Origin: a virus
Taxonomy: Duplodnaviria > Caudoviricetes
Strand: one strand, 5' to 3'
DNA length: 62,907 nt
IMG/VR virus record: IMGVR_UViG_3300044638_001368
Location: 1-62,907 of that record
How positions within the stretch are numbered: the stretch's first letter is position 1; each line of letters opens with the position of its first letter. A model generated the notes under the pieces. It searched no databases and had not been told where the DNA came from. It saw only the letters and a program-made list of their open reading frames with translations. Made by a program: the position numbers and the translations under genes. Positions 12,257 to 48,773 of the stretch are shown here, piece after piece.

Positions 12257-12529
12257 TTACTTACCTTTCTTGAAGCCCTTCAGCATCTTGGCAAAACGGG
12301 CCCGCTGACCAAGCTTACCGGGGGCTTTAGTAGCCTTAGCCAGTTTACCAGCCGCGATAGGCTCGCCCTTCTTGGCACCAAGGCTGGCCCGCAACGCACC
12401 GGGCTTCTTGATGGCCTTGGCAATGTTGAGCCTACCGCCCTTTTTCATGTAACCCATTTTGTTACGTACATCCGTGGGCAACTTAGACAGTCCGGGATTA
12501 GCGCTGGGATCAACCGGTTTGAGTGCCAT
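12257..12529 (-). CDS. Small Lys-rich protein
   Basis: MKKGG and AIKKPGALRASLG motifs. Confidence 0.7.
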   Translation of the reverse strand: MALKPVDPSANPGLSKLPTDVRNKMGYMKKGGRLNIAKAIKKPGALRASLGAKKGEPIAAGKLAKATKAPGKLGQRARFAKMLKGFKKGK

Positions 12530-12783
12530 TATCTGAACCCTTTCGTTTTGTTTGCGATATTCTTTGGCTGCTTAACGAATTGCTTACCCGCAGCTTTACC
12601 AGTTCGCTTGGCCTTTGTCGTCGCTGCATATTCCGCAGAAGACAAAGACTTTATCGCGTTCTCCGGTAAGTACCGTTCACCTGTCGCCTTGGGTCCCTGC
12701 GTCGATGGCTTACCGCTTTTGGTCCGCCACTTTTGCTGGGTCCAAGACTTCAGGCTCTGCTGGGATTTAGCAAGCCCGCTCAC
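12529..12783 (-). CDS. Small basic protein (DUF5872-like C-terminal half)
   Basis: SQQSLKSWTQQKWRTKSG...GERYLP. Confidence 0.6.
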   Translation of the reverse strand: MSGLAKSQQSLKSWTQQKWRTKSGKPSTQGPKATGERYLPENAIKSLSSAEYAATTKAKRTGKAAGKQFVKQPKNIANKTKGFR

Positions 12784-13277
12784 TTATAACCGCCGCCCTT
12801 CTTCTTGTACTGCAAGGCTAGCATCTGGGCTTTGCGGGCCGACCACTGACCCGGTGCACCGCCCTTACCACCAGACTTGATGGAGCTAAACAACGACTTA
12901 CGCATACCCGGTTTGGTGTAGTTTCCAGCTGCGTTAACCTTTGACGTACCACCCTTGGCCTTACGACGACTTTCAGGGACGTACGGCTTCCCATCGGGAC
13001 CCTTGACCAGAGGCTTATTCCCAACGATATCCTCATCGCTAGGCCCCAGACGCTTCATCGGGGCTTCTTTCTTCGGTTCAGCCTTCGGACGCGGGCGGGT
13101 AACGATTTCGTTAATCCGGTCAAAGCTTTCCTTGACCGAATCACCACCAGCGTACTTCTTCACCTTGCCGCCCTTAGCGTACATCTCGACCTTATCCGGG
13201 TTGTCTTTCCGGGTGATCGTCTTTGCCTTGGGCATCTTAGAGGGGGACATAATGCCCATACCCCGGGACGGTCTCAT
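12780..13277 (-). CDS. Lys-rich protein ending in a DUF5872-like N-terminal half
   Basis: YAKGG and YAGG motifs; C-terminal YTKPGMRK...GQWSARKAQMLA...GGGYK; start reassigned to ATG 13277. Confidence 0.6.
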   Translation of the reverse strand: MRPSRGMGIMSPSKMPKAKTITRKDNPDKVEMYAKGGKVKKYAGGDSVKESFDRINEIVTRPRPKAEPKKEAPMKRLGPSDEDIVGNKPLVKGPDGKPYVPESRRKAKGGTSKVNAAGNYTKPGMRKSLFSSIKSGGKGGAPGQWSARKAQMLALQYKKKGGGYK

Positions 13278-13278
13278 A

Positions 13279-13539
13279 TCAGCACTTGCCGCCATTCTTC
13301 ATGGTGATCTGCTTGGCCTTAGTCTTGCCCTTCGTGGCAATACCGTCAGTGGAAGAGCGGAACGAACCACCCTTGGCGTACATTCCGCCCATGTTCATCT
13401 TCTTCGCGGAGCCACCCTTCTTCATGCCCATGCCCATCGGGGCAGCAGGAGCAGCCATTGCACCACGACCAGCGCGAGCAGCCATAGCGCGACCCATCAT
13501 GTCCTTAAGCGCACCCATCTTCTTGTTAGACTTTTTCAT
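13279..13539 (-). CDS. Small Met/Lys/Gly-rich protein
   Basis: MKKGG, YAKGG, DGIATKGKTK motifs. Confidence 0.7.
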   Translation of the reverse strand: MKKSNKKMGALKDMMGRAMAARAGRGAMAAPAAPMGMGMKKGGSAKKMNMGGMYAKGGSFRSSTDGIATKGKTKAKQITMKNGGKC

Positions 13540-13835
13540 TAGCGCATCTTTCCTTTTGTCTTACCTTTTATGGCTATACCGTCACCACGACGGGAAGCTG
13601 AACTCTTAGCCGGGGCGCTCTTGGCCTTGGCCTTGACTTTACCACCCTTTTTGAACGGGGTGGGACGGCTAGCCATGGGGCCCATAGCGTTAAACGCCGG
13701 GGGGTTGGTGCCCATCGCAGGGTTCTGGTTCGGCATATTCGTGCCCATCGTCTGACCCGGCATGGGGTTCATCTGGTTAAACCCGTAGTTAGGGGTACCA
13801 GAAGCTACGTTACCACCATCTGCATACTTCTTCAT
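13539..13835 (-). CDS. Small basic protein
   Basis: Start reassigned to MKKYADGG (ATG 13835); FKKGG and RGDGIAIKGKTKG motifs. Confidence 0.65.
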   Translation of the reverse strand: MKKYADGGNVASGTPNYGFNQMNPMPGQTMGTNMPNQNPAMGTNPPAFNAMGPMASRPTPFKKGGKVKAKAKSAPAKSSASRRGDGIAIKGKTKGKMR

Positions 13836-13839
13836 GGCC

Positions 13840-14085
13840 TTAGCCTTTTTTGTTGATTTCGTCGATTTTTGTTTCAAGCCGTAGAAAAGCCGCATCAAAG
13901 CGGTCACCCAGTTTCTCAAAATCACGGCTGTACTCCGCTCTAGTAATATGATCCCGGGCAATCTCTTCCCGGGTCTTGTTCATAAGGATACCAAGACGAG
14001 CCAGCTCGTCAAACTTGCCCTTCAGCAAAAGCCCCATGCCTGCTACAATAGCACTAAGAATAATGTTCCAGATCATCATTTCCAC
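13840..14085 (-). CDS. Small membrane-anchored coiled-coil protein
   Basis: N-terminal hydrophobic helix followed by LMNKTREEIARDH coiled coil. Confidence 0.6.
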   Translation of the reverse strand: MEMMIWNIILSAIVAGMGLLLKGKFDELARLGILMNKTREEIARDHITRAEYSRDFEKLGDRFDAAFLRLETKIDEINKKG

Positions 14086-14086
14086 G

Positions 14087-14341
14087 TCAGCAGTCCCACG
14101 CCCTAAGGCTTTTGTTGATCCGGCTATTGGGGTCGTTAGCGGTCTTGGCGCTGGTAAGCTTCTTCTTCATCCCGGACATCCGGGCACAAAATGACTTCTT
14201 GCGGGCACCACCTTCAGGCTGGGGGCGCTTCAGGCCGGGTTTCCCGGGGTTGGCAGCATTGTAGGAAGCACGTCCCTTGGCGTTTAGACCGCCCTTGGGG
14301 TTCTTACCTTCTTTGCGTGTCCATGCCGGGGACTTAGCCAT
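14087..14341 (-). CDS. Small basic protein (DUF6321-like)
   Basis: AWTRKEGKNPKGGLNAKGR...RKKSFCARM...SLRAWDC. Confidence 0.65.
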   Translation of the reverse strand: MAKSPAWTRKEGKNPKGGLNAKGRASYNAANPGKPGLKRPQPEGGARKKSFCARMSGMKKKLTSAKTANDPNSRINKSLRAWDC

Positions 14342-15074
14342 TGGACGCCTTCTGGTCAGGGACTATCATGGGGTAGAGGACATCGTTACCAAAAGCACCT
14401 TTGTACTCCTGCACGCCCATGTGACCCAGCTTGATGGTAGGGTCGATCCAGACTTCGAAGCCTTCGGCCCGGACGCGGTCACAGAAGAGGAAGTCCTCCC
14501 CCATGTAGCCCTCGGCGGTGACCTTGAAGTCGAACATGGCGTTCAGGCGGCGGTTAGACCGCTTGTCGTCGTATTCCCACTCAGGGTGCTTGGAAGACAG
14601 GACTTCGAAGACTTCGCGGCGGACCATCATGAAGGCAGTAGCCACCCGCTTCGCACGTACTAGGCCCATACCGTTCATGGTCAACTGGCCGTTCTCGTCG
14701 TAGTCTAGGTCGGTGATATAGACCTTGTCTTCGCTGCGCGTGCGGGGAACCCCGGCGACGATGCCCTTTTTGGGGTCCGAAGCCCAAGCCATAAGCCGGA
14801 AAACGTCGTCCGGTTCGAAGTTAATGTCGGAATCAATGAAGAGCAGGTCCGTGCAGTCGGACTCCAGCATGTCCTTAGCCAGCAGGTTGCGGACCCGGGA
14901 AACCACCGAGCAACCGCAGATACTGCCTATCTGGATACTGACACCGTGCTGGCCTGCGGACTGGGCAAAGCTAGCCAACGACACTGCCAACTTCAAGGAA
15001 ACCTTGAAATCGTAGGCTGGCAGAGCGATGAAGAGCCGCCTTCCCGCTAGTTCGTAACCCTTAGTTGCCGCCAC
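14334..15074 (-). CDS. GT-A fold glycosyltransferase-like protein (late copy)
   Basis: FIALPAY, SRVRN, LLFIDSD (DxD), GEDFLFC, LGHMG. Confidence 0.75.
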   Translation of the reverse strand: MAATKGYELAGRRLFIALPAYDFKVSLKLAVSLASFAQSAGQHGVSIQIGSICGCSVVSRVRNLLAKDMLESDCTDLLFIDSDINFEPDDVFRLMAWASDPKKGIVAGVPRTRSEDKVYITDLDYDENGQLTMNGMGLVRAKRVATAFMMVRREVFEVLSSKHPEWEYDDKRSNRRLNAMFDFKVTAEGYMGEDFLFCDRVRAEGFEVWIDPTIKLGHMGVQEYKGAFGNDVLYPMIVPDQKASNG

Positions 15075-15078
15075 AGCA

Positions 15079-15567
15079 TCACCCGTAGAATATGGTTGTG
15101 GTTAAGTTAGCGACTAGACCTACGTAGATACCGTTCTCGGCAAGGATACCTTCACCGGGGATAAAAGCGGTGAAAGAAGTGGAGTTGTAGCTATCCACTT
15201 CCATAAGGATCGTCGCGTACATCGTCACGTTGCCGTTTGTGGTCAGGCTTGCCGTGGTAACCGTGAAGGCGTTGGGGGAGGTGACGGTGACGGCGTAGAC
15301 GTTGTTTGTCGCACCGCTTCCCGTGGTGAAGTTCAGCCAAACCCTATCACCAGTAGTCAGACCATGAGCGGTAATCGTTACCGTACACACAGTAGAACCG
15401 GGAATATCGTAGGTACCCGTCTGGGTGCTGTTATCCGCGAAAACAGCGTTTCTAGCCGCTGCCGCAGCGTTAGCAGAGACAATAGCTCCCTTTAGGCGAG
15501 TACGGTAGTTAACCGCAACACCCGAAGCAGACATGTGCTTAGACTTGACATCATATTGCATTGCCAT
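15079..15567 (-). CDS. Virion structural/decoration protein
   Basis: Beta-rich, TVTITAHGLTTGD motif, IPGEGIL...GIYV C-terminus. Confidence 0.55.
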   Translation of the reverse strand: MAMQYDVKSKHMSASGVAVNYRTRLKGAIVSANAAAAARNAVFADNSTQTGTYDIPGSTVCTVTITAHGLTTGDRVWLNFTTGSGATNNVYAVTVTSPNAFTVTTASLTTNGNVTMYATILMEVDSYNSTSFTAFIPGEGILAENGIYVGLVANLTTTIFYG

Positions 15568-15727
15568 CAACGAGCTCCTTGGCTTCTTCCGGCGTATTAA
15601 GACGCTGAATAAGCATTTTATAAGCAGTTACAGTGGCTTGGGCCCTAGCGGTAAAGGTTTGTGCCTTTTCCATTTCGCGCTCCAAGTCACTGATTTCCGA
15701 AAGCAAAAAGTCTTCGGTTATCTGCAC
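15551..15727 (-). CDS. Small coiled-coil protein (58 aa, not in ORF track)
   Basis: Read manually from GTG: MQITEDFLLSEISDLEREMEKAQTFTARAQ...; fills the gap. Confidence 0.55.
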   Translation of the reverse strand: MQITEDFLLSEISDLEREMEKAQTFTARAQATVTAYKMLIQRLNTPEEAKELVDGNAI

Positions 15728-15728
15728 G

Positions 15729-16325
15729 TTAAGCTACCGTCGAGACCATGATGTAGTAGGTCGTCCCGTTGGCGCTCAACACCGGCATGGTGTGGGTGAC
15801 CGAGGGGCTGCCAACCGCCGCACGGAACACACCAGCAGCAGCAGGGGTCGGGACGCTCATCATGTTGGCGAGAACCTTGCTGCCCGAGTTGGTCACGCGA
15901 ATGAACGCAGCCGACGCCGGGACCGTGCAGTTAGACGCCAGATCACTATCGAGCTGGAGGGCCGACAGGGTGCCGCCCGGGTTAGCCAGAGCGCCCATGC
16001 CCAGAGTAGCACGCAGGGCGTTGCCCGCACCGGAGATGGTACCGGGGCTGTTGATCGACATCGAGATATGGGCACCATTGATCGTGCCACCAGTCGCCGC
16101 GCCAACGCCAGTCACAACCGAGAACGCACGAAGGGTTTCGCCCGAACCGGTGGAGGTGAAGGTCAGCTTTTCGTACACAAGGCGGGTGTCGCCCGAGGTG
16201 GCCGAAGTCGTGCCGAAAGAACTGGAAATGTTAGTAGCAGTAGTAACGGTAACGGGGTCGGAAGAAGTACCGCCGATAAAGCCGTTCTGGGACGCAACGG
16301 GTCCGCTAAAGGTAGTCTGGGCCAT
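15729..16325 (-). CDS. Capsid decoration/fibre-like protein
   Basis: MAQTTFSGPVASQNGF N-terminus; first gene after the major capsid gene; GGAGA SD. Confidence 0.6.
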   Translation of the reverse strand: MAQTTFSGPVASQNGFIGGTSSDPVTVTTATNISSSFGTTSATSGDTRLVYEKLTFTSTGSGETLRAFSVVTGVGAATGGTINGAHISMSINSPGTISGAGNALRATLGMGALANPGGTLSALQLDSDLASNCTVPASAAFIRVTNSGSKVLANMMSVPTPAAAGVFRAAVGSPSVTHTMPVLSANGTTYYIMVSTVA

Positions 16326-16338
16326 GGAAATTCTCCGT

Positions 16339-16410
16339 GTTGTAGCACATCCCCGTACCGTCTCTACAACGTCTGCTAGGACAGTCGGTACAGGTAAAGG
16401 AACCTAGATT
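16339..16410 (-). ncRNA. Candidate structured RNA leader (kissing-loop/double pseudoknot)
   Basis: Three interleaved helices of 5, 9 and 7 bp in order A-B-A'-C-B'-C', ending 2 nt before the SD of 15729-16325. Confidence 0.55.
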
Positions 16411-16433
16411 GGGAAAAACATACAGTCTATTAG

Positions 16434-16463
16434 AAAAAAGGGAAGGGGTTTTATCCCCTTCCC
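16434..16463 (-). terminator. Rho-independent terminator after the major capsid gene
   Basis: GGGAAGGGG/CCCCTTCCC stem followed by T6 on the minus strand. Confidence 0.8.
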
Positions 16464-16473
16464 CCTAGTCTTC

Positions 16474-17385
16474 TTACGGAGCGCCAGCCGAGGCGAACAT
16501 GCCCAGCGGGTCGGACCAACCGAACGAATAACGCTCGCGGCTCTTGTAACGAACGTTGCCGGTATCGAAGTCTCCGTCCATCGACTGCGTCATCGGTGCG
16601 CGGATAAAGTGCTTCAAACCATTCGGAACGTCCGTGGTCAGGAACCAAGCGTCGGTGTCGGTCAGGTAGTGGTTAACAGTGTAACCCTCCGGGATCGAAC
16701 CGTTGCTCTTCAGAGCGTTGATGTCGTTGTCGGCGGTGCTTACACGGAGTTCAGTCTCCAGCAAGCGGGTCGAAACGAACATCAGGCTCGGCGGGACAAC
16801 CAACTTACGGGGCTTAGCTGCGATGAGCAGGCCGCGTTCATCCGTCCAAGCCGCGATCTGAATTACGGCAGCTTCGAGGCTGGTTTCATTCAGGTCGGCA
16901 GGGGTGGGCGGAATGTTGGAGTTGGTACCACCGGAAACCAGCGGATGCGAAGCGCTGAACAGAGGCTGACCGTCGCCGCCCAGATAGGACGAGCTAAAGC
17001 CGTTGTTCAGAATCGCAGCCGCCTTGGTCTGCTTGGTATACGCCATGGCACGAGCCAGAGCCTTGGTGTAACGCGAAGACAGAGAGTCATAGAGGTTGTC
17101 CTCGATGGCTTCTTCCGTCAGCGAAAACCCAAGAGCAATCGTCTCGTGGTTGTAGCGGGCAGTGAAGACTTCCTGCGCATTGTCATAAGCAATGGCAGAG
17201 CCTTCGTTCTTAACCGGAGCAGCCGAAAAACCGGACAGCTTGGTTTCTTCTTCGAACGAGCGTTCCGAAGTTTCGGTCTCAAAGATTTCCTTATGCTCTT
17301 CGCCGTAACGAGCATATTCCAGACCGAACAGAGCGTTCAGGCCGGGAAGGAGTTCCTTAAGAAGTTGTGCGCGTGAAATAGCCAT
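16474..17385 (-). CDS. Major capsid protein (Mu gpT-like annotation class common in aquatic phages)
   Basis: MAISRAQLLKELLPGLNALFGLEY...EEAIEDNLY...RERYSFGWSDP; 303 aa; after the scaffold; followed by a terminator. Confidence 0.9.
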   Translation of the reverse strand: MAISRAQLLKELLPGLNALFGLEYARYGEEHKEIFETETSERSFEEETKLSGFSAAPVKNEGSAIAYDNAQEVFTARYNHETIALGFSLTEEAIEDNLYDSLSSRYTKALARAMAYTKQTKAAAILNNGFSSSYLGGDGQPLFSASHPLVSGGTNSNIPPTPADLNETSLEAAVIQIAAWTDERGLLIAAKPRKLVVPPSLMFVSTRLLETELRVSTADNDINALKSNGSIPEGYTVNHYLTDTDAWFLTTDVPNGLKHFIRAPMTQSMDGDFDTGNVRYKSRERYSFGWSDPLGMFASAGAP

Positions 17386-17399
17386 TTGTCATGTTCTCC

Positions 17400-18017
17400 T
17401 TAAACGCCGGTAGGCTGGGTATACTGGTGCCCGCCAACAGCGCCGGTTGTCGGCGCATTCCACTTCACAATCACTTCGGTGTAAGAACCGGGATAGCCCG
17501 CGATGGCGGTTTCCGGGACCACGTCGATGATGCGAATGGGGTACGTGTTGGTGGTAGCCGTGGTAGCCAGAATAGCCACCGCAGAGTTACCAGTGATCGT
17601 GGAGCCAACGTTCTGAACCAGCAGGGCGTTGTTGCCAACGTTACTGCGATTGACATAGCCAATCGTGGTGGTGGCAGACACTACCGCAACCTTGAACAAC
17701 TGATCCGGGTCATCCGCCACGAAGGCAACGATGTCCGAAGCATAAACAGCGCCGGGATAGTACTGACGGAACGTCTTTCCGAAGACTGGGTCCGTATAGG
17801 AGCAGCCGAGAAGAACGCCAACAGGGGTAGCAGCGTCAGTGCCGGTGTCCTGAACCAGAAGTCCGGTGTTCGCCAGCTTCACAACGTCACCATAAAAGAT
17901 GGCCGTCGCGGAGTTGGAAGCAATCGGAATCTGGCGCGTCGCGCCTGCAAAAACCTGCCCGCCAATCAGATTGATCGGAAGAAGCCCATACGGGGCTGTG
18001 ACAGAAGGGTATGCCAT
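17400..18017 (-). CDS. Head decoration/cement-like protein
   Basis: APYGLLPI...IFYGDVV...GVLLGC...DDPDQLF; directly upstream of the capsid gene. Confidence 0.6.
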   Translation of the reverse strand: MAYPSVTAPYGLLPINLIGGQVFAGATRQIPIASNSATAIFYGDVVKLANTGLLVQDTGTDAATPVGVLLGCSYTDPVFGKTFRQYYPGAVYASDIVAFVADDPDQLFKVAVVSATTTIGYVNRSNVGNNALLVQNVGSTITGNSAVAILATTATTNTYPIRIIDVVPETAIAGYPGSYTEVIVKWNAPTTGAVGGHQYTQPTGV

Positions 18018-18030
18018 TAGTTTCTCCTAG

Positions 18031-18480
18031 TTATTTGCCTTTGCCAAACGAGGACGAAGACTTCCTTTCACTAAAAAGGGGCATCTTCGGATTGTTCTCG
18101 CGCATAAAGTTATTGTCTACCGACTCGATTTGGTCTCGGTTCTTCTTAGCGAAGTATTCGCTGCGTTGAGCCATGAACTCCTCGGGAATCTTGCAGAGCA
18201 ACAACCCACCGACCTCAATGTTGTTCTTAAAACGACTATTGGGGTCCACCATCATGTGGAACTTGGGCTGTTCTTCGGACTTTACTGGTTCCCAACCTTC
18301 GCGCATCTTCGCAGACACATTGCTCGGGTCGGCTACATTCAAGTTCGAAACACGAATCCACCGGTACGAATATCCGGGCTGTTTGTCCGGTTCAGGCAGG
18401 GCCGAAGCTGGCTGCCATGATTTGGGACGCTCGGACTGGGTACGGTTTTCAAGTTCGCGTGCAAGTCTAGTCTCAGCCAT
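18031..18480 (-). CDS. Conserved head morphogenesis protein
   Basis: YRWIR...REGWEPV...GGLLLCKIP. Confidence 0.6.
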   Translation of the reverse strand: MAETRLARELENRTQSERPKSWQPASALPEPDKQPGYSYRWIRVSNLNVADPSNVSAKMREGWEPVKSEEQPKFHMMVDPNSRFKNNIEVGGLLLCKIPEEFMAQRSEYFAKKNRDQIESVDNNFMRENNPKMPLFSERKSSSSFGKGK

Positions 18481-18481
18481 T

Positions 18482-19432
18482 TTAGTTCTCCAACTTTCTC
18501 AGTTCCCGGGCGTACTGCTCGGGGGTTAAACCTAACTTCTTCGCAAGTAGAACTTGCGATTGTTTCAGTACGATCTTTTTGGAGGACGTACTGCGAGAGG
18601 CCGAAGCAACTACTGTGGCTGGCTTGGTTTCGGTGCGCGTAACGGGCTTGCCGCCCCCGTTAGCCGGTTGTTCCTGCTCCCCAAAATACTCTGGAAAGCG
18701 GCGGCGCATCGTGTCATCGACGTTGCGCCAATACTCGTCAGTACCAACATATTCTTTGCCGTACTGTTTTTCGAGTTTCTGATGGTATCCCAAAGCAAGG
18801 GATGTCATCTCCACGTCTGTTCCCCACCACGTATTGCGCTCTTGCCACGCAGTAGTCTTAGGGTCGAGACGCGGAGCTTGGGCCACGTCCTGAGCAATTT
18901 CTACCTCAGGTTCTGGAGCTTGTAAAGTAGACCTATAGTTTTTTAGCTGATGCAGGCGGTAGTTAGCGTCTGTCATCTTTTCCTGAGCTTCGACAACCTT
19001 GTCCGAGTCCCCGGCTTCGTAGGCTTCCTTGTAGGCTTTCCGTGCCGCAGTCATCTCCATTTCCGCAGAGTTCTTGGAGGTATCGACCAGCATCTGCTCA
19101 CCCTGAGACAGGCTGTTCTTTAGGCGGCGGTTCTCATCAACGACGCGGCGGGCTAAGTTAATGGCCTCCTGCTGTTCGCGGACAGCAGCTTCCTTTTCCC
19201 GACGCTCATCGTGCCAGACCTTCTTCATCTGCTTGAGTCGGGTCTTGACCTTGTCGGAGTATTCCTCCAGCTCGTCGGCTTCCAGCTCATCAACCAGAGC
19301 CTTGGGCATCGGGGTCTTACCCCGGTCTTCTACTGGAGTGTCATCCTCAACTTCGATTTCAGGCTTCTCCGCGCCTTCGATCTCTATTTCTAGGTCTTGG
19401 ATATCGTCCTTTTTCTTAGTATTATCAGCCAC
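18482..19432 (-). CDS. Capsid scaffolding protein
   Basis: Acidic coiled coil with C-terminal LAKKLGLTPEQYA helix-turn-helix. Confidence 0.7.
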   Translation of the reverse strand: MADNTKKKDDIQDLEIEIEGAEKPEIEVEDDTPVEDRGKTPMPKALVDELEADELEEYSDKVKTRLKQMKKVWHDERREKEAAVREQQEAINLARRVVDENRRLKNSLSQGEQMLVDTSKNSAEMEMTAARKAYKEAYEAGDSDKVVEAQEKMTDANYRLHQLKNYRSTLQAPEPEVEIAQDVAQAPRLDPKTTAWQERNTWWGTDVEMTSLALGYHQKLEKQYGKEYVGTDEYWRNVDDTMRRRFPEYFGEQEQPANGGGKPVTRTETKPATVVASASRSTSSKKIVLKQSQVLLAKKLGLTPEQYARELRKLEN

Positions 19433-19441
19433 TTGTGCCTC

Positions 19442-19852
19442 CTAGGCTCTGCTGATGCCGCGAGGGTCTTCAACAATGCCCTCCACGGAATCGTCGTTAA
19501 TGATCCTGAACTCACGCCCGTGGATTTTCACCCGGGTGCCGGAATGGGGGCGCACAAGGATAAAGTCGCCCTCCTTGCACCAAGGGCCACTGGGGAAACG
19601 TGTTGCATCTTTGTAACAGTCAGGGCCCATTTTCAGGACAAACAGGACTGTGGTGAGGAGCTCTTCATGGTGAACGGTGATATCGGCCTTAAGGATGCCG
19701 CTATCGAACTTCTTGTCCACTTCGGGGATAGCGCACAGAATACGGTACCCAGACGGGTCTGGTAGCTGCTTGGCCTTAAGTTCAGGAGTATCGGGTAGTA
19801 CGGTAGTGTCTTCCAAATTGTCGGGGTTTGAGCCGACGAGAAGTTCAGTCAT
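19442..19852 (-). CDS. GroES-like co-chaperonin
   Basis: PSGYRIL...SGI...MGPDCY...WCKEGDFIL...RIINDDSV. Confidence 0.8.
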   Translation of the reverse strand: MTELLVGSNPDNLEDTTVLPDTPELKAKQLPDPSGYRILCAIPEVDKKFDSGILKADITVHHEELLTTVLFVLKMGPDCYKDATRFPSGPWCKEGDFILVRPHSGTRVKIHGREFRIINDDSVEGIVEDPRGISRA

Positions 19853-20039
19853 CTGAATTTTCCAACCTTTCTGCGGTTTCGATTAGCATGTTGTTTGCAA
19901 GGAGCAGCCCACGGATAATCCCGCAGGCGTACTTGTAGTCTCCGAAGTCCTTGGCTTTACCCATGGACATGTCTTCGGACAGCACTAGGCGTTCGTCTCT
20001 TAGTTTGTCTGAAAGATATTTCAGTATGTCGTCCCTCAT
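19845..20039 (-). CDS. Hypothetical protein
   Basis: DYKYACGIIRGL; between portal and GroES-like genes. Confidence 0.6.
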   Translation of the reverse strand: MRDDILKYLSDKLRDERLVLSEDMSMGKAKDFGDYKYACGIIRGLLLANNMLIETAERLENSDD

Positions 20040-22513
20040 TCAGTCTCCTCTGGTTTACTTCCTTGCGCTGTGGTTCGGGCTTCCTGAGCCATCTCCCTAG
20101 CGATATCGACGCCTATACGGAGTTTGGCTTCCTGCTGTTTGGCAGACAGGTTGGCCTTATCCGTGGCGATCTTTGCACCGACATTCATGCCAGCGATTCG
20201 TTCCTGAACGGCGAGACGTTCGCGTTCGAGGTCCAGTTTGTCCTTGGCGGTTGCGCCATCAACAAGCAGCTTCTGGCGCTTGATCTCGGTTTCGTGTCCC
20301 TTGATCTCAAGTTCCTTCTGCTGCATCTGGACAAGCGGGTCCTGCTGTAGCTGCTGTGCTTTTTGCTGCGCGGCTTCAGCTTGGTTCTTCTGGAGCAGTT
20401 GCTGTGCGGCGGCAGCAGCCAGACGAGAAATCTGGACCTCTGTCTGCTCATCCATCTCAGCGTCAGGTGCCGGGTACGGGACACCAGCCTGCTCTTCGAT
20501 CTGCTGACGGTACTCGAACGCCATATGTTCCGAAATATGCGCCTGAAGAGCCGCCATCATCGCCTGCGCCTGCGGGTTCTGCCCAATAATCTGTGCGATC
20601 TTGGGGTCCTGCATCATGGTCTGGTGGACGGTAATATGGGCCTTGTGGTCCTGATAAATGAACGCCTTCATGGGTTTGCCCTTCAGGACCGACATATTCT
20701 CACTGACTGGGTCCACAGGCTTCTGGTCGTCGTCCAGTTTGACAAGCTTATTAGCGTTCTGAATGCCCAAGACTTCGAGCATCTCCCGGTGCAGGTAGGG
20801 CATGTCGTACAGCTGCGGCGCACCCTGCGCCAACTGCATCACTGCCTGATACTGGACAACCTTCTGCGCCATGGTGGCAGCGTTGGGGTCGGACACCGGG
20901 ATTACAGTGACGAGATCGTAGTCGCCCCTTTTGGCACGCGGCGTGCCATCTTCGGGTTCGTAGTCGTAGGACTCGGGGGTGTAGTCGCGGATGATGTCCC
21001 GCAGCAGGATGAACTCCTGCTTCATGGAGTAGTGAATGCGGGCCTGCACAGCCGACATCACCTTCAAGGTTCGTTCAAGAATAGCCAACGTCGTACCCAC
21101 CGGGCTGTTGGCGGACATGTCGCTAACCTGCAAATCAGCAGCGCCAGCGAAGCGGCGACCTTCATCAACGATGGTACCAAGTAGCGTGTAGAGGACCTGA
21201 GACGGCTCCTTGTACGGGAGCGTCATGATGTTGTCTTTGATCGTACCAGACGAAACGTCTACGTCCCGGAACTCAGCCGGTGCAATAGGCGTGTCGTCTC
21301 CTTTGACACGAAGTCCGCGAGTCTTGAAACCACCCGGTAGGTTTGACAGGGTACCAGCATCAACAAGCTGACGAATGATACTAGTGCCAGACTTAGCAAA
21401 AGCGCCAATGAGATGAATAAGGCCAAAAGCGTAGAAGCCAAAACCCGGAATATAAGAGTAGTGAACAAAATGATTGCGCTTGCGCTTGCTTTTATCATCT
21501 GAATGCCAATTCCTTCTGATAGCTAAAACGGTTTCTGTGCCCTTCTCAATCGTAATGACGTAGGGCAGGGCGATGCCTGTCTCTTTGCCGTCGTCGTCCT
21601 TGTCTTCAAACCCGGGCAGGTCAACGTCAACGTGCATCTCAAGAATCTTGAAGCGCTCATCGTACGAAGCCCGGAAGCCCATCTTCTCCGCGATCTTCTT
21701 CTCGACTTCGTCAAACGTGCTGTTCGGCTCACCAAGGTCCTCATCCCGATAGAAGCCAGCAGCCTGTAGCTTCTTGATCTCGTTGGGTGTCTTGCGCATG
21801 ACGTGCGTGACACGTTCAGCAGACTGGAGATTACTGGCACCATACGGAACGACGACATCCTCGGCGGGCACGTACATCGACACCTGCCTAGAAAGGCTCG
21901 GATCGTAGTAGACCTTCTTGAAGGCGTTACCCGACAGACCCAAGCCCCACAGCATCCGCTCGTGTTCGGGGCGGTACTCAGCCATCACGTCGGTCAACTG
22001 GTAGTTCATGTCAGCAGCGACACGAACCGAAGCTTCTTTCTTCTCCGTGGTCTCCTTACCAATAATCTGCGTCTTGACCGGACCAGCGGCGGGGAACGTA
22101 CTCATCATGGTCTCGGCTTGGAACTTGACCAGTGCTTCGGATAGCAGAGGGTGGTAGACACCACACGCTCCCGGCCACGGCTCGGTGCGGTCTTCGACCT
22201 TCAAACCAAGCAACTCAAGGCCGTCCACGTAGGTCTGAATCCAGTCCTTACGGGCGCTAATATCTTCGTCAAACTCGCTCAGTAGATCACCTACTAGGCT
22301 AGTCAGTTCCTTCTCGTTCATTTCTTCGGCAAGGTTAGCGTTGAACTCGTCGTCTTCCGCATCACCGGGTTCAAGTTCGATCTCCATGTCCCCGGTCTTG
22401 ATCTTGACACTCTCCGGGTCTTCGATCTCGATTTCGATATCGGGTCCAAGGTCTTCTTCGTTTAGACCGGTGAGACCCAGCGGGGCTTGGTTCACTGCTT
22501 TGTCGATAGCCAT
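20036..22513 (-). CDS. Portal protein
   Basis: 825 aa; PWPGACGVYHP, GNAFKKVYYD, RQLVDAGTLSNLPGG; C-terminal Gln-rich coiled-coil barrel. Confidence 0.88.
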   Translation of the reverse strand: MAIDKAVNQAPLGLTGLNEEDLGPDIEIEIEDPESVKIKTGDMEIELEPGDAEDDEFNANLAEEMNEKELTSLVGDLLSEFDEDISARKDWIQTYVDGLELLGLKVEDRTEPWPGACGVYHPLLSEALVKFQAETMMSTFPAAGPVKTQIIGKETTEKKEASVRVAADMNYQLTDVMAEYRPEHERMLWGLGLSGNAFKKVYYDPSLSRQVSMYVPAEDVVVPYGASNLQSAERVTHVMRKTPNEIKKLQAAGFYRDEDLGEPNSTFDEVEKKIAEKMGFRASYDERFKILEMHVDVDLPGFEDKDDDGKETGIALPYVITIEKGTETVLAIRRNWHSDDKSKRKRNHFVHYSYIPGFGFYAFGLIHLIGAFAKSGTSIIRQLVDAGTLSNLPGGFKTRGLRVKGDDTPIAPAEFRDVDVSSGTIKDNIMTLPYKEPSQVLYTLLGTIVDEGRRFAGAADLQVSDMSANSPVGTTLAILERTLKVMSAVQARIHYSMKQEFILLRDIIRDYTPESYDYEPEDGTPRAKRGDYDLVTVIPVSDPNAATMAQKVVQYQAVMQLAQGAPQLYDMPYLHREMLEVLGIQNANKLVKLDDDQKPVDPVSENMSVLKGKPMKAFIYQDHKAHITVHQTMMQDPKIAQIIGQNPQAQAMMAALQAHISEHMAFEYRQQIEEQAGVPYPAPDAEMDEQTEVQISRLAAAAAQQLLQKNQAEAAQQKAQQLQQDPLVQMQQKELEIKGHETEIKRQKLLVDGATAKDKLDLERERLAVQERIAGMNVGAKIATDKANLSAKQQEAKLRIGVDIAREMAQEARTTAQGSKPEETE

Positions 22514-45702: not shown

Positions 45703-45757
45703 CAACGCCTAACAAACCCCTTAGTGGCCGGAAGTGCAAACTTCCGAACGAGCACCC

Positions 45758-48598
45758 ATGTCCGAATTTGATCTCCTTACTGCCGTGCAGCCCCCCGAGG
45801 GGTGGTTTGCTGTTATAGGGATCAAGGATAAGGCTGTAGTTCAGAAGTTTACGCAGGATAGGGAAGAAGTAGACGCAATAGCTGCCGAGTTTATGGCGCA
45901 GGAGCGTAACGTATTCTTCGGTGTTGCCAAGTATACTGAAGCTGGTAGCCGCAAGAAGGACAACGTCAAGGCGCTTAAAGCCTTCTGGCTGGACATAGAT
46001 TGTGGGGAGACCAAGGCCCGAGTTGACGAGAAGACTGGCAAACCAGATGGGTACATCGACCAACCTACAGCACTAGAGGAACTAAAGCGGTTCTGTAAGC
46101 TGGTCGGTTTGCCCAAGCCTATTCTCGTCAATTCGGGCCGAGGGGTACACGTATACTGGCCGCTTACTGAGGAGATCACCCGGGAACAATGGGAGCCTGT
46201 GGCTGACCGGCTACGTGAGCTTTGCAATACCCATGAACTCTACGTTGACCCAGCAGTCTTCGAAGTGGCTCGCGTGCTGCGTATACCCGGCACGTTGAAC
46301 TTCAAGGACAACCCACCGGCAGAAGTAACGGTGTTGAGCGAAGGTGCCCCCGTAGAGTTCGGGAAGTTCAAGGCTCTCCTAGGTATAAAGGACAAAGAAC
46401 GGTCACTGGTCACCCCACCAGAACGCGAGATTAGTGAGTTCGCTAAGGCTTCGCAGGAGAACATTAACAAAAGTTTTACCAAGATTATGCGCCGTAGCGC
46501 CAAGGGCGAAGGTTGCCAGCAGCTATGGGACTGCTACGAGAACCGCGCCACGCTGCCAGAATCGCGCTGGTTCAACGCCCTGTCCGTAGCCAAGTTCTGC
46601 ACTGACAAAGACACCGCTATACATACGTTGTCTGAGGGTTACCCCGACTACGCCCCAGATAAGACTGAGCGGAAGATACAGCACATCGGTGGCCCGCAAG
46701 GGTGCAAGGAGTTTGAGAAGAATAACGCGGGTGGCTGCAAGGGCTGTCAGTTCAAGGGCAAGATTACCGGCCCGATCATGCTGGGTAAGGAACTGGCAGA
46801 GGCCACAGACGCCGATAACACCGTTGTCGAGGAGACCGAGGACGGTACGCAAGGTAAGACCTACAGTATACCCAAGTATCCCAAGCCGTATGCACGTGGG
46901 GTAAAGGGCGGCATTTATCTTGTTAAGAAAGACGAGGAAGCCGAGCCTATCCTTGTCTACCACAACGACCTGTATGTCGTGAAGCGTATGGTGGACCCAC
47001 AAGAAGGCGACGTAGTGGTCATGCGACTGCACACGCCCTGCGACGGGATAAGAGAATTTACAGTCTCAAATAAGATCGTAATGAAGAGAGACGAACTAGG
47101 CGGCGTACTGGCCGCACGGGGTGTGGTGTGCCCGTCTAAGCAGTTCACCATGGTTATAGACTACGTAATAGCGTCAATTAACAGTATGCAAAACAGAGGA
47201 AAGGCAGAACAAATGAGACTTCAATTTGGTTGGGCTGACAACGACAGCAAGTTCATCATCGGAGACAGAGAAATCAGCGCGGACGGGACGTACCATAGCC
47301 CACCGTCGTCTGTTACCAAGAAGCTAGCCGAATGGATGGTACCTACGGGCAGCTTAGATAAGTGGAAGGAAGTCTTCAACCTGTACGGTAGGCCGGGTCT
47401 GGAACCCAACGCCTTCGCCGCCCTGTCTGCCTTCGGTTCTCCGCTGCTTAAGTTCTTGGGGCAGAGCGGTGTTATCATCAACTTGATTAACTCCCGTTCG
47501 GGTACGGGCAAGACTACTGCCCTACACATGAGTAACAGCGTCTACGGCCACCCCAGACTACTGTGCGCGGTCAAGGCGGATACTTTGAACGCCAAGATCC
47601 TGCGTCTGGGTCTTATGAATAACCTACCATTTGCCGTGGACGAACTAACCAACATGAGCGCCGCAGACTTCTCTGAACTGGCCTACTGCATGTCCCAAGG
47701 GCGCGGTAAGGACCGGCTCAAGCAGTCTACGAACGAAATGCGCCTCAACCTGACTTCGTGGGCTTGCATATCGCCGTGCAGTTCTAATGCGTCGTTCTAC
47801 GAAAAGATGTCGTTAGGTAAGCGCAACCCAGACGGCGAGATGATGCGCCTTATAGAGTACAAGGTTGATTACAGCGATGCGGTTGACCCGGCGATAGCCA
47901 AGCAGATGTTCGACCACCAGCTTATGGAGAACTACGGCCACGCTGGTCTTATCTACGTAGACTGGTTGGTGAAGAACCTAGAGGAAGCCAAGGGCATCCT
48001 GCTGGCTACCCAAGCCAAGATTGACCGGGAACTTAAGCTGACACAGCGCGAACGTATCTGGTCTGCTGCCTTGGCCGCTAACATTACAGGGGGCAGGATC
48101 GCCAAGCGCCTTGGTCTGATCGACTGGGATATGAAGGCTATCTACCTGTGGGCCACCAACATGCTTACAGATATGCGAGATGACGTAGCGCCGCCTATAA
48201 GCAACGTGTCTGCGGTTATTGCAGAGTTCTTGAACCGACATATGCAGAACTATGTCGTTGTGAAAAGCGAGCTAGATGGAAGGACTGGGTTTGAACCGCT
48301 GCCCACGTTGGAGCCCAAGGGCGAGCTTATGATCCGGCAGGAACCTGATACCAATAAGATGTTTATCTCTATCAAGCCGTTCAAAGAAGACTGCGTGAAG
48401 TACCAGATCAACTACAAAGAAACGATCAAGGAACTTAAGGCCAAGGGCATTATGCTCAAAATGGAAAACAAGCGGCTGTCCAAGGGCATGCAGATTGTTA
48501 CACCTTCTGTGTATTGCATGACGTTGGATATGCTGCACCCAGAGTTCTTGTCTAGGCCCCCTTTTACGGAAGCTGAAAATGCAGCTGGAGAAGGTTAA
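45758..48598 (+). CDS. Primase-helicase (AEP-like N-terminus + DUF927-like helicase)
   Basis: WLDID, NSGRGVHVYW, RVLRIPGT; Cys cluster; SGTGKTT Walker A, VDE Walker B. Confidence 0.85.
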   Translation: MSEFDLLTAVQPPEGWFAVIGIKDKAVVQKFTQDREEVDAIAAEFMAQERNVFFGVAKYTEAGSRKKDNVKALKAFWLDIDCGETKARVDEKTGKPDGYIDQPTALEELKRFCKLVGLPKPILVNSGRGVHVYWPLTEEITREQWEPVADRLRELCNTHELYVDPAVFEVARVLRIPGTLNFKDNPPAEVTVLSEGAPVEFGKFKALLGIKDKERSLVTPPEREISEFAKASQENINKSFTKIMRRSAKGEGCQQLWDCYENRATLPESRWFNALSVAKFCTDKDTAIHTLSEGYPDYAPDKTERKIQHIGGPQGCKEFEKNNAGGCKGCQFKGKITGPIMLGKELAEATDADNTVVEETEDGTQGKTYSIPKYPKPYARGVKGGIYLVKKDEEAEPILVYHNDLYVVKRMVDPQEGDVVVMRLHTPCDGIREFTVSNKIVMKRDELGGVLAARGVVCPSKQFTMVIDYVIASINSMQNRGKAEQMRLQFGWADNDSKFIIGDREISADGTYHSPPSSVTKKLAEWMVPTGSLDKWKEVFNLYGRPGLEPNAFAALSAFGSPLLKFLGQSGVIINLINSRSGTGKTTALHMSNSVYGHPRLLCAVKADTLNAKILRLGLMNNLPFAVDELTNMSAADFSELAYCMSQGRGKDRLKQSTNEMRLNLTSWACISPCSSNASFYEKMSLGKRNPDGEMMRLIEYKVDYSDAVDPAIAKQMFDHQLMENYGHAGLIYVDWLVKNLEEAKGILLATQAKIDRELKLTQRERIWSAALAANITGGRIAKRLGLIDWDMKAIYLWATNMLTDMRDDVAPPISNVSAVIAEFLNRHMQNYVVVKSELDGRTGFEPLPTLEPKGELMIRQEPDTNKMFISIKPFKEDCVKYQINYKETIKELKAKGIMLKMENKRLSKGMQIVTPSVYCMTLDMLHPEFLSRPPFTEAENAAGEG

Positions 48599-48773
48599 CT
48601 ACGACATTAACTGGAAGACATTTAAGCGGGGTTGGTCTTTTTTCCTACCGTGCTTGGACCCAGTGCGAGCCAAACGGGAACTACTTTGCACTACGAACCG
48701 CCTACGAATAAAGGTTCTTACCAAAGTGGTTATCGTAGAAGGTATAAGGGGCTTGCGCGTCTGGCGCATGTAA
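48579..48773 (+). CDS. Small conserved protein
   Basis: W..F..G.SFFLPCL...GIRGLRVWR. Confidence 0.6.
   Translation: MQLEKVNYDINWKTFKRGWSFFLPCLDPVRAKRELLCTTNRLRIKVLTKVVIVEGIRGLRVWRM

Follow-up and report, generated by a model that had tools for sequence, protein, structure and literature searches.

A conserved double-pseudoknot leader RNA between the capsid gene and a probable cement gene of lake and ocean phages

We analyzed a complete virus record of 62,907 bp that bears terminal repeats (Caudoviricetes; IMG/VR record IMGVR_UViG_3300044638_001368), referred to here at its full length as the window, in which the short gap downstream of the major capsid protein gene had been flagged as a compact kissing-loop or double-pseudoknot RNA by a model that read only the letters and their open reading frames (ORFs). 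The flagged region and the capsid and downstream genes that flank it lie on the minus strand throughout, and features are described on that strand unless stated otherwise. The capsid gene (16474-17385) encodes a 303-amino-acid (aa) protein that falls within PHROG family phrog_371, "major head protein" (E 8.2e-23), and shares 62-73% aa identity with the capsid proteins of phages Pag-Yong1, DSL-LC04, and HTVC023P. At its 3' side stands a hairpin resembling an intrinsic terminator (12 pairs followed by a U-tract; 16434-16466), the sole strong minus-strand terminator-like site within 12500-20500. The RNA under study, of about 71 nucleotides (nt), constitutes essentially the whole 5' untranslated leader of the gene that follows; a -10-like hexamer, TATGTT (16417-16422), lies 9 nt upstream of its first helix, and a Shine-Dalgarno (SD) sequence, GGAGA (16332-16336), abuts its last. 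The ATG at 16325 then opens a 198-aa ORF (15729-16325) whose product is a probable capsid cement or decoration protein, and from the motif the structural gene block continues on the minus strand to the start of the window, accounting for about 16 kb of late genes. Judged by sequence comparison, this leader is an evolutionarily conserved, knotted RNA with covarying helices.

The leader can be read, from 5' to 3', as five helices linked by short junctions. Helix A (5 bp) pairs the 5'-terminal strand CUAGG (16403-16407, with 16380-16376) with CCUAG (16376-16380), and a variable, pyrimidine- or U-rich loop, L1 (UUCCUUUA, 16395-16402), separates its 5' strand from that of helix B. Helix B (9 bp) joins CCUGUACCG (16386-16394, with 16360-16352) to CGGUACGGG (16352-16360) and includes the pair U16392-G16354. 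A single unpaired A (16385) leads into helix D, in which CUG (16382-16384) forms three pairs with CAG (16375-16373; 3' strand, 16373-16375) around a 6-nt loop composed of U16381 and the 3' strand of helix A. The second half of the RNA begins with the junction A-C-N (16370-16372, N being G here), followed by helix C (6 bp), which pairs UUGUAG (16364-16369, with 16345-16340) with CUACAA (16340-16345), and by the junction AGA (16361-16363) between the 5' strand of helix C and the 3' strand of helix B. Helix E, the last, brings together GUG (16346-16348) and CAC (16339-16337; 3' strand, 16337-16339) in three pairs, and its 6-nt loop is the 3' strand of helix C.

Topologically, five bases of the hairpin D loop pair with the 5'-terminal strand to make helix A, all six bases of the hairpin E loop pair with an upstream strand to make helix C, and in both cases the two 3' strands (A and D; C and E) run as one continuous strand. 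The resulting mini-pseudoknots, A/D and C/E, are joined by helix B, which forms between their long connecting loops. Almost every base of the roughly 70-nt RNA is paired, in two crossing topologies. The geometry this implies, in which one or no bases cross the deep groove of a 5-6-bp helix, is one that H-type pseudoknots and fully paired six-base kissing loops permit.

The window sequence by itself proves nothing about these helices, which are not beyond chance, because the interleaved triple is found at the rate seen in shuffled sequence and the nested folding energy is ordinary. A strict search for such triples (A, 5 bp; B, 9 bp; C, 6 bp) returned one per strand in the real window and 1, 1, 0, 0, 0, 0, 0, 0, 2, and 0 across both strands of ten dinucleotide shuffles; the nested minimum free energy was unexceptional (z = -0.30), with 78 of 200 shuffles folding as well. 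The second interleaved candidate of the same 5/9/6-bp form, a chance-rate match on the plus strand at 48661-48745, adjoins the 3' end of, or lies just beyond, a large plus-strand ORF (45734-48598).

Evidence for the fold came from homologues. IMG/VR was searched with the capsid proteins of the window and of DSL-LC04, each protein contributing the best 80 of at least 600 candidate stretches, 160 loci altogether. A covariance model, R1, built from 14 ungapped sequences of the main class with only helices A and C entered as pairs, found 56 matches in 83 sources, at most one per source and all on the strand of the capsid gene. The main-class alignment (A7, 42 homologues) was likewise produced by a model that held only A and C as pairs, helices B, D, and E being absent from it. 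In this alignment 97.4% of 1090 cells are paired, changes on both sides occur in 20 of the 26 pairs, and 113 cells are compensatory; none of 500 shuffles (0/500) equaled it on even one of the five measures, and displacing the partners by 1-3 columns lowers the paired share to 17.8-49.2% of cells. Double changes affect all nine pairs of helix B, and covariation extends to five of six pairs in helix C and three of five in helix A, while helix D passes from U:A to C:G in 6 of the 42 rows. DSL-LC04, the first relative found, keeps all three of helices A, B, and C, with three double changes in B and one in C. In a second class, class 3 (CCGGG), an ungapped MAFFT alignment of 28 RNAs fitted to no model has 99.1% of its cells paired and double changes in eight of ten helix B pairs. 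Mixed-class MAFFT alignments (A1, A2, A3, and A6) misplaced gaps and were left out of the counts. The helices further contain 29 G-U pairs against 6 A-C pairs; the structure therefore belongs to the RNA of the minus strand, and a DNA-level or antisense element is ruled out by the same count.

With these alignments in hand, the first description of the element can be amended. Helices A, B, and C lie base for base at the minus-strand positions proposed in the sequence-only reading, including the one G-U pair in B, and the -10 candidate TATGTT (16422-16417) and the GGAGA downstream of helix C are likewise where it placed them. That reading had made its proposal contingent on covariation among homologous regions, and the homologues do covary, in 42 main-class and 28 class-3 rows. 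Six of the seven pairs it gave helix C stand; the seventh, G16370:C16339, pairs in only 16 of 42 rows and was rejected, C16339 belonging to helix E. The linkers ACUGU and CAGAC, taken to be unpaired, in fact hold the CUG and CAG that pair with each other, with covariation, as helix D. The compact double-pseudoknot or kissing fold is thereby borne out by covariation in an incomplete form, in which helices D and E were missing and one pair was wrong.

A wider sample of relatives defined which parts of the RNA are fixed. Our first, loose descriptor scans gave many false positives on both strands and were replaced by a fixed-junction descriptor, which recovered 109 instances, 93 of them unique, in the window and 162 loci. 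Over the 93 unique homologues, spanning the classes, helix A occurs as 8 strand-pair types, D as 6, C as 13, and E as 8. Helix D appears as CUG/CAG (44), CAG/CUG (37), CCG/CGG (7), CGG/CCG (3), CCC/GGG (1), and CUG/CGG (1); helix E as GUG/CAC (34), CUU/AAG (25), CUC/GAG (22), GUA/UAC (2), GAG/CUC (1), and imperfect types. Invariant unpaired bases are few: A16385, A16372-C16371, and G16362-A16361. The A between helices B and D is present in 93/93 parsed homologues and the junction AGA in 83 (CGA in 7, UGA in 2, CAA in 1), neither being required by the parse; the junction AC is found in 92/93 and AU in 1/93, a near-invariance to be read in light of the parse, which demanded the A and a C or U after it.

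The same searches indicate that the RNA is present in hundreds of lake and ocean phages. Standard geometry was found at 107 of the 160 capsid-retrieved loci; among the others, some end soon after the capsid gene, some carry variants missed by the descriptor, and some have a different leader. Whole-record searches gave one strong copy per genome. Two 15-base patterns run against IMG/VR each returned at least 120 matches, and of 234 hits evaluated (115 for the main pattern, 119 for the CCGGG pattern), the standard parse accepted 134 (33 main, 101 CCGGG); about eight of those that failed appeared unrelated by eye, and nearly all others were variants. We counted at least 181 unique sequences of standard geometry and, among the variants listed, 62 of an AT-rich class. 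Model R1 misses or misaligns divergent classes: it found neither the probable copy in phage HTVC027P nor the class-3 copy of G001/L030, and these were read by eye or by the fixed-junction descriptor. The leaders that host the motif, that of Pelagibacter phage HTVC023P included, vary widely in base composition, which argues for universal machinery or a phage-borne factor.

Covariation cannot separate pairing within a molecule from pairing between molecules, and the two modules of the RNA are pseudo-symmetric. Both points would suit an oligomer resembling packaging RNA (pRNA), in which helix B forms between molecules to build rings or chains for assembly. The leader, however, is not a separate transcript but continues into the SD sequence and the ORF without a terminator, and no Rfam family, any pRNA model among them, is matched; we regard such an oligomer as extremely improbable.

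Comparison among classes shows a constant 5' core (helices A, D, and B with the junction bases A, AC, and GA) and a variable 3' module. Main-class members place the SD 0-4 nt after the 3' strand of helix E (CAC), with 7-15 nt between that strand and the AUG. In the two largest other classes, AAG and GAG, the helix E 3' strand is itself the first part of the SD (AAGGA, GAGGA) and stands 4-11 nt from the AUG, and at loci L039, L050, and L072 the SD lies inside the 3' strand of helix C. The AT-rich class (62 unique sequences) keeps A, D, B, and the junction bases, with C and E replaced. Here the AC junction is followed by a conserved GCCA able to pair with UGGC in AUGGC (GCCA/UGGC in 44 sequences, GCCG/UGGC in 9, CCCA/UGGG in 2, and ACCA/UGGG, unpaired, in 1; for the remaining 6 of the 62 the script picked an earlier ATGG), and the 3' module thus probably contains the AUG. 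Downstream of helix B and ahead of the start codon, the SD of this class sits in a small hairpin of its own (e.g., L204:3690-3790, minus strand), the arms of which covary (AUUUCC/GGAAAU, UUAAG/CUUAA, UUUUUC/GAAAAA). As in autogenous translational operators of the T4 gene 32 or ribosomal-protein type, then, a structured leader overlaps or abuts the ribosome-binding site (RBS) of the adjacent gene.

The motif also stays directly upstream of the downstream gene's ATG when other genes have been inserted downstream of the capsid gene (L012, L036, L040, and L052). Comparative sequence data thus tie the RNA to the downstream gene and to its RBS. Several functions had been floated for it at the outset, among them a switch that would set decoration-protein stoichiometry, a self-cleaving or nuclease-blocking leader, and an oligomerizing RNA; a cis-regulatory leader of the next gene is the sole one to gain support, in that the motif follows this gene past insertions and its 3' module touches the RBS in every class.

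A constant core with variable 3' platforms resembles, by analogy, the pattern of a sensor coupled to an expression platform. One could accordingly conceive of a ligand-sensing riboswitch in which A, D, B, and the junction bases form the aptamer, binding a small molecule or an ion, and the 3' module, touching the SD or AUG, forms the platform; a second conserved CCGG in the L1 of the CCGGG class, offering a local hairpin as an alternative to helix A, would fit such a device. Its roughly five invariant unpaired bases are nevertheless few for a pocket, the regulated gene encodes a virion protein with no metabolic link, and the main class conserves neither a terminator nor a clear mutually exclusive structure; we consider a riboswitch of this kind decidedly improbable.

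As to the L1 of the CCGGG class (e.g., at L042:3472-3500, L082:1065-1090, and L137:2699-2725), it ends in a conserved CC. Together with the first GG of helix B, this CC gives the helix A 5' strand another possible partner (CCGG, CCUGG, GGGG), one that changes along with helix A in L082 and L137; a local hairpin competing with the pseudoknot is possible in this class.

Where the leader begins can be estimated from the sequence upstream of helix A, in which a putative sigma-70-like promoter lies between the capsid terminator and the motif, at a distance of 7-9 nt from the latter. Across the 93 homologues, T/A/T/A/n/T is enriched at -15 to -10 relative to helix A, with A at -12 in 68 of 93. The hexamer TAnnnT ends 6-10 nt upstream of helix A in 118 of 181 unique sequences, and among those 118 TTG occurs at the -35 position in 57, against 4 in a shifted control; matches of at least 5/6 to TTGACA at -35 number 9 against 0. 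At loci where an inserted gene separates the motif from the capsid gene, the promoter-like site is displaced along with the motif, and both remain with the downstream gene. Transcription probably starts 1-4 nt before helix A, because the promoter-like site keeps a fixed distance from the motif and moves together with it. Contigs from RNA libraries of two studies cover the motif (X1, 15937-16440; X4, 16321-16657); they give neither ends nor strand, and we draw no inference from them on start or processing.

The insertions themselves have a recognizable character. Several relatives carry an extra gene between the capsid terminator and the promoter-plus-motif unit, with GIY-YIG-like ORFs at L013, L025, L046, L047, and L049 and Cys-rich ORFs at L022, L030, L031, and L081. 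Some of the inserted ORFs begin with a GIY...YVG-type sequence and are homing-endonuclease-like, and the annotation of Caulobacter phage GB2A puts a homing endonuclease next after the capsid gene. The gap after the capsid terminator looks like an insertion hot spot.

A predicted start 1-4 nt before helix A in nearly all members, with the 5' strand locked into the A/D pseudoknot, is also what one would expect of a protective, cap-like knot that buries the 5' triphosphate and resists decay by RppH and RNase E or by RNase J, with no role in translation. The fold is far more elaborate than masking an RBS needs, and the SD of the main class is free, both of which speak for protection. Protection alone leaves unexplained why the 3' module takes in the SD, and probably the AUG, in other classes, and no Rfam family of exonuclease-resistant RNAs is matched; a purely protective knot is an unlikely rival.

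The RNA comes directly after a promoter and heads the rest of the structural genes on the minus strand, a position that would equally suit an antiterminator like the put RNAs of HK022, in which the nascent leader binds the polymerase that made it and takes it through the roughly 16 kb of late genes. HK022 put RNAs are of similar size to the motif. A scan of 12500-16300, however, detected no strong minus-strand terminator-like site downstream of the motif, no sequence or model similarity links it to any catalogued family, and the class-by-class coupling to the SD or AUG would go unexplained; we regard antitermination as very unlikely.

Turning to the gene that the leader precedes, the 198-aa protein matched no PHROG family. 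Its probable identity as a capsid cement or decoration protein rests on the GenBank annotation of the syntenic gene in its relative DSL-LC04, which is labeled "cement protein." The N-terminus, MAxTTFSGP, is conserved, and 70 of the 93 downstream ORFs fall into one BLAST-linked cluster, the others sharing mainly the N-terminus. The leaders in front of genes for close relatives of the 198-aa protein (55-67% identity) belong to different sequence classes. A structure model from an 11-sequence alignment had a mean predicted local distance difference test score (pLDDT) of 48.9, too poor for a fold search or for a test of the label. Two plus-strand ORFs (15633-16379 and 15769-16407) run antisense to the cement-like gene and overlap the motif; they have no relatives in seven cultured phages and look like composition artefacts. 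Summed contig depths from four lake metatranscriptome runs are far higher for the capsid gene (16496-17424) than for the cement-like gene (15400-16440), a contrast that hints only at an effective capsid terminator, as contig depths cannot rank genes.

Two cultured Pelagibacter phages, HTVC023P and HTVC027P, have capsid proteins with 62% identity to that of the window, and in HTVC023P the motif precedes gp41 (L164:2992-3070). HTVC027P probably has a divergent copy upstream of gp62, which was read by eye only, has a mismatch in helix D, and was not found by the model. An infection time course has been published for HTVC027P (PMC12753301), and a culturable host-phage pair together with an existing infection RNA sequencing series makes the function of the RNA directly testable. 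Other leaders occupy this place in Pag-Yong1, Roseobacter phage CRP-902, an Alcaligenes phage, and a Caulobacter phage, and folding those of Pag-Yong1 and CRP-902 gave other structures and nothing decisive. In the Planktothrix phage Pag-Yong1 (L002:3444-3515), whose capsid protein is 73% identical at the aa level, the motif is absent and a GC-rich 9-bp hairpin stands instead. The loop of this hairpin (CCGUCU) complements AGACGG at the SD and offers another means of contact with the same RBS.

Weighing these results together, we favor, with a probability of about one half, a translational gate that acts in cis and in addition buries the 5' end of its message. On this model, a sigma-70-type promoter would start the leader 1-4 nt before helix A, and the fold would bury the 5' end and finish exactly at the SD. 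The folded leader would limit or time access of the 30S subunit to the RBS, and the buried 5' end would protect the transcript from end-dependent decay. Either a trans-acting factor (a phage protein or a small molecule) or the kinetics of folding would work the gate.

Several observations weigh against such a gate or against parts of its supporting evidence. In the main class, to which the window belongs, the SD lies outside the fold (0-4 nt after the helix E 3' strand), and simple sequestration therefore does not apply there. Each capsid requires hundreds of copies of cement protein, a demand that a repressive leader fits badly unless the gate is opened late. Masking an RBS would take no more than a plain hairpin; that the knot is elaborate and conserved hints at some further role. 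In the AT-rich class, the pairing over the start codon covaries weakly (2 CCCA/UGGG, 1 mismatch), because coding also constrains AUGGC. For class 3, two of the five measures are unexceptional: 10 double-change pairs against 7.5 in shuffles, a value that 25 of 500 shuffles reach, and 23 further pair types against 21.5, reached by 133 of 500; the absence of variation in its helices A and D reflects the choice of 21 of the 28 rows by a pattern in which both are fixed. Contig X4 bridges the capsid terminator, making read-through or DNA carry-over possible. Finally, a comparison of seven cultured relatives uncovered no protein exclusive to the phages that bear the motif.

A bolder, speculative proposal, to which we attach a low probability, is that the five-helix core constitutes a new class of sensor, either a riboswitch or a receptor for a phage factor, that silences a constitutive virion-gene message until late infection, or else the first nuclease-blocking knot from a bacterial virus. 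Phages of the HTVC023P type have no RNA polymerase gene of their own; were the sensor version true, they would time part of their late expression through RNA folding. A switch, a nuclease blocker, or a ribozyme would in each case be a new class. Should the RNA prove to be only a tuned leader, it would still be a natural case, of unusual clarity, in which to study the structure of a compact double pseudoknot.

The RNA matches no family in Rfam 15, a point on which the sequence-only reading had made its novelty depend. Scanning 16100-16700 of the window at E<=10 gave seven weak matches, all within 16424-16563 (the terminator and the end of the capsid gene) and none on 16337-16407, and scanning seven loci of other classes at E<=1 gave two weak matches, neither on the motif. 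Literature searches found no description of the motif. A 2023 survey (PMC10690425) reports 8,495 unnamed candidate structured RNAs, "DNAVirus_N," from IMG/VR intergenic regions, candidates that share with ours the data source and the kind of evidence. Searched by keyword, the main text of that paper describes no motif upstream of cement or decoration genes; abundant as it is, the present motif may already be among the 8,495 as a nested model, a form in which that pipeline would not show pseudoknots.

The helix order A-B-A'-C-B'-C' invites comparison with ribozymes, and specifically the notion of a pistol-like RNA lacking P3 that cleaves itself, trimming read-through transcripts to a defined 5' end. 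The strands of the pistol ribozyme follow the order P1-PK-P1'-P2-PK'-...-P2', which the present order matches, and small ribozymes are common in phages. Pistol, however, carries a P3 hairpin between the 3' strand of its pseudoknot and that of P2, and cleaves in the P2/P3 internal loop. Between the 3' strands of helices B and C we find only three unpaired nt (GAU) and the 3-nt strand of helix E, with no hairpin in the main or CCGGG classes; the conserved bases are others, and few of them are unpaired. Moreover, no ribozyme family, pistol included, matches the motif at E<=10, or at E<=1 in the other classes, and the RNA-library contigs run through it unbroken, which is weak evidence. Self-cleavage accordingly strikes us as highly improbable.

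In lying at the 5' boundary of an RNA, where it could block nucleases that act from that end, the knot recalls exonuclease-resistant RNAs (xrRNAs) and 5' stabilizer hairpins such as that of the ompA leader. To our knowledge, known xrRNAs all come from eukaryotic viruses. The motif has no similarity to the Rfam xrRNA families.

By analogy, the closest relatives in function are pseudoknotted translational operators and H-type pseudoknot riboswitches, a likeness that does not imply homology. Riboswitches of the preQ1-II, SAM-II, SAM-V, and guanidine-III classes are likewise small pseudoknots that have a conserved core, variable 3' ends, and an SD at or within the 3' helix, but the present RNA matches none of them in Rfam, has about five invariant unpaired bases, precedes a virion-protein gene, and suggests no ligand. 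Leader translational operators include the double pseudoknot of the Escherichia coli alpha operon bound by S4, the rpsO pseudoknot bound by S15, and, as a phage precedent, the leader pseudoknot of phage T4 gene 32. The last of these is mentioned in PMC10690425. Like them, our motif is a compact leader pseudoknot at or in the RBS that would act in cis on translation of the adjacent gene; it differs from them in its five helices and two pseudo-symmetric modules, in lacking any sequence or model similarity to them, and in probably starting at the first transcribed bases. It is, in sum, a leader RNA whose general kind is known but which is itself new, abundant, and unusually intricate.

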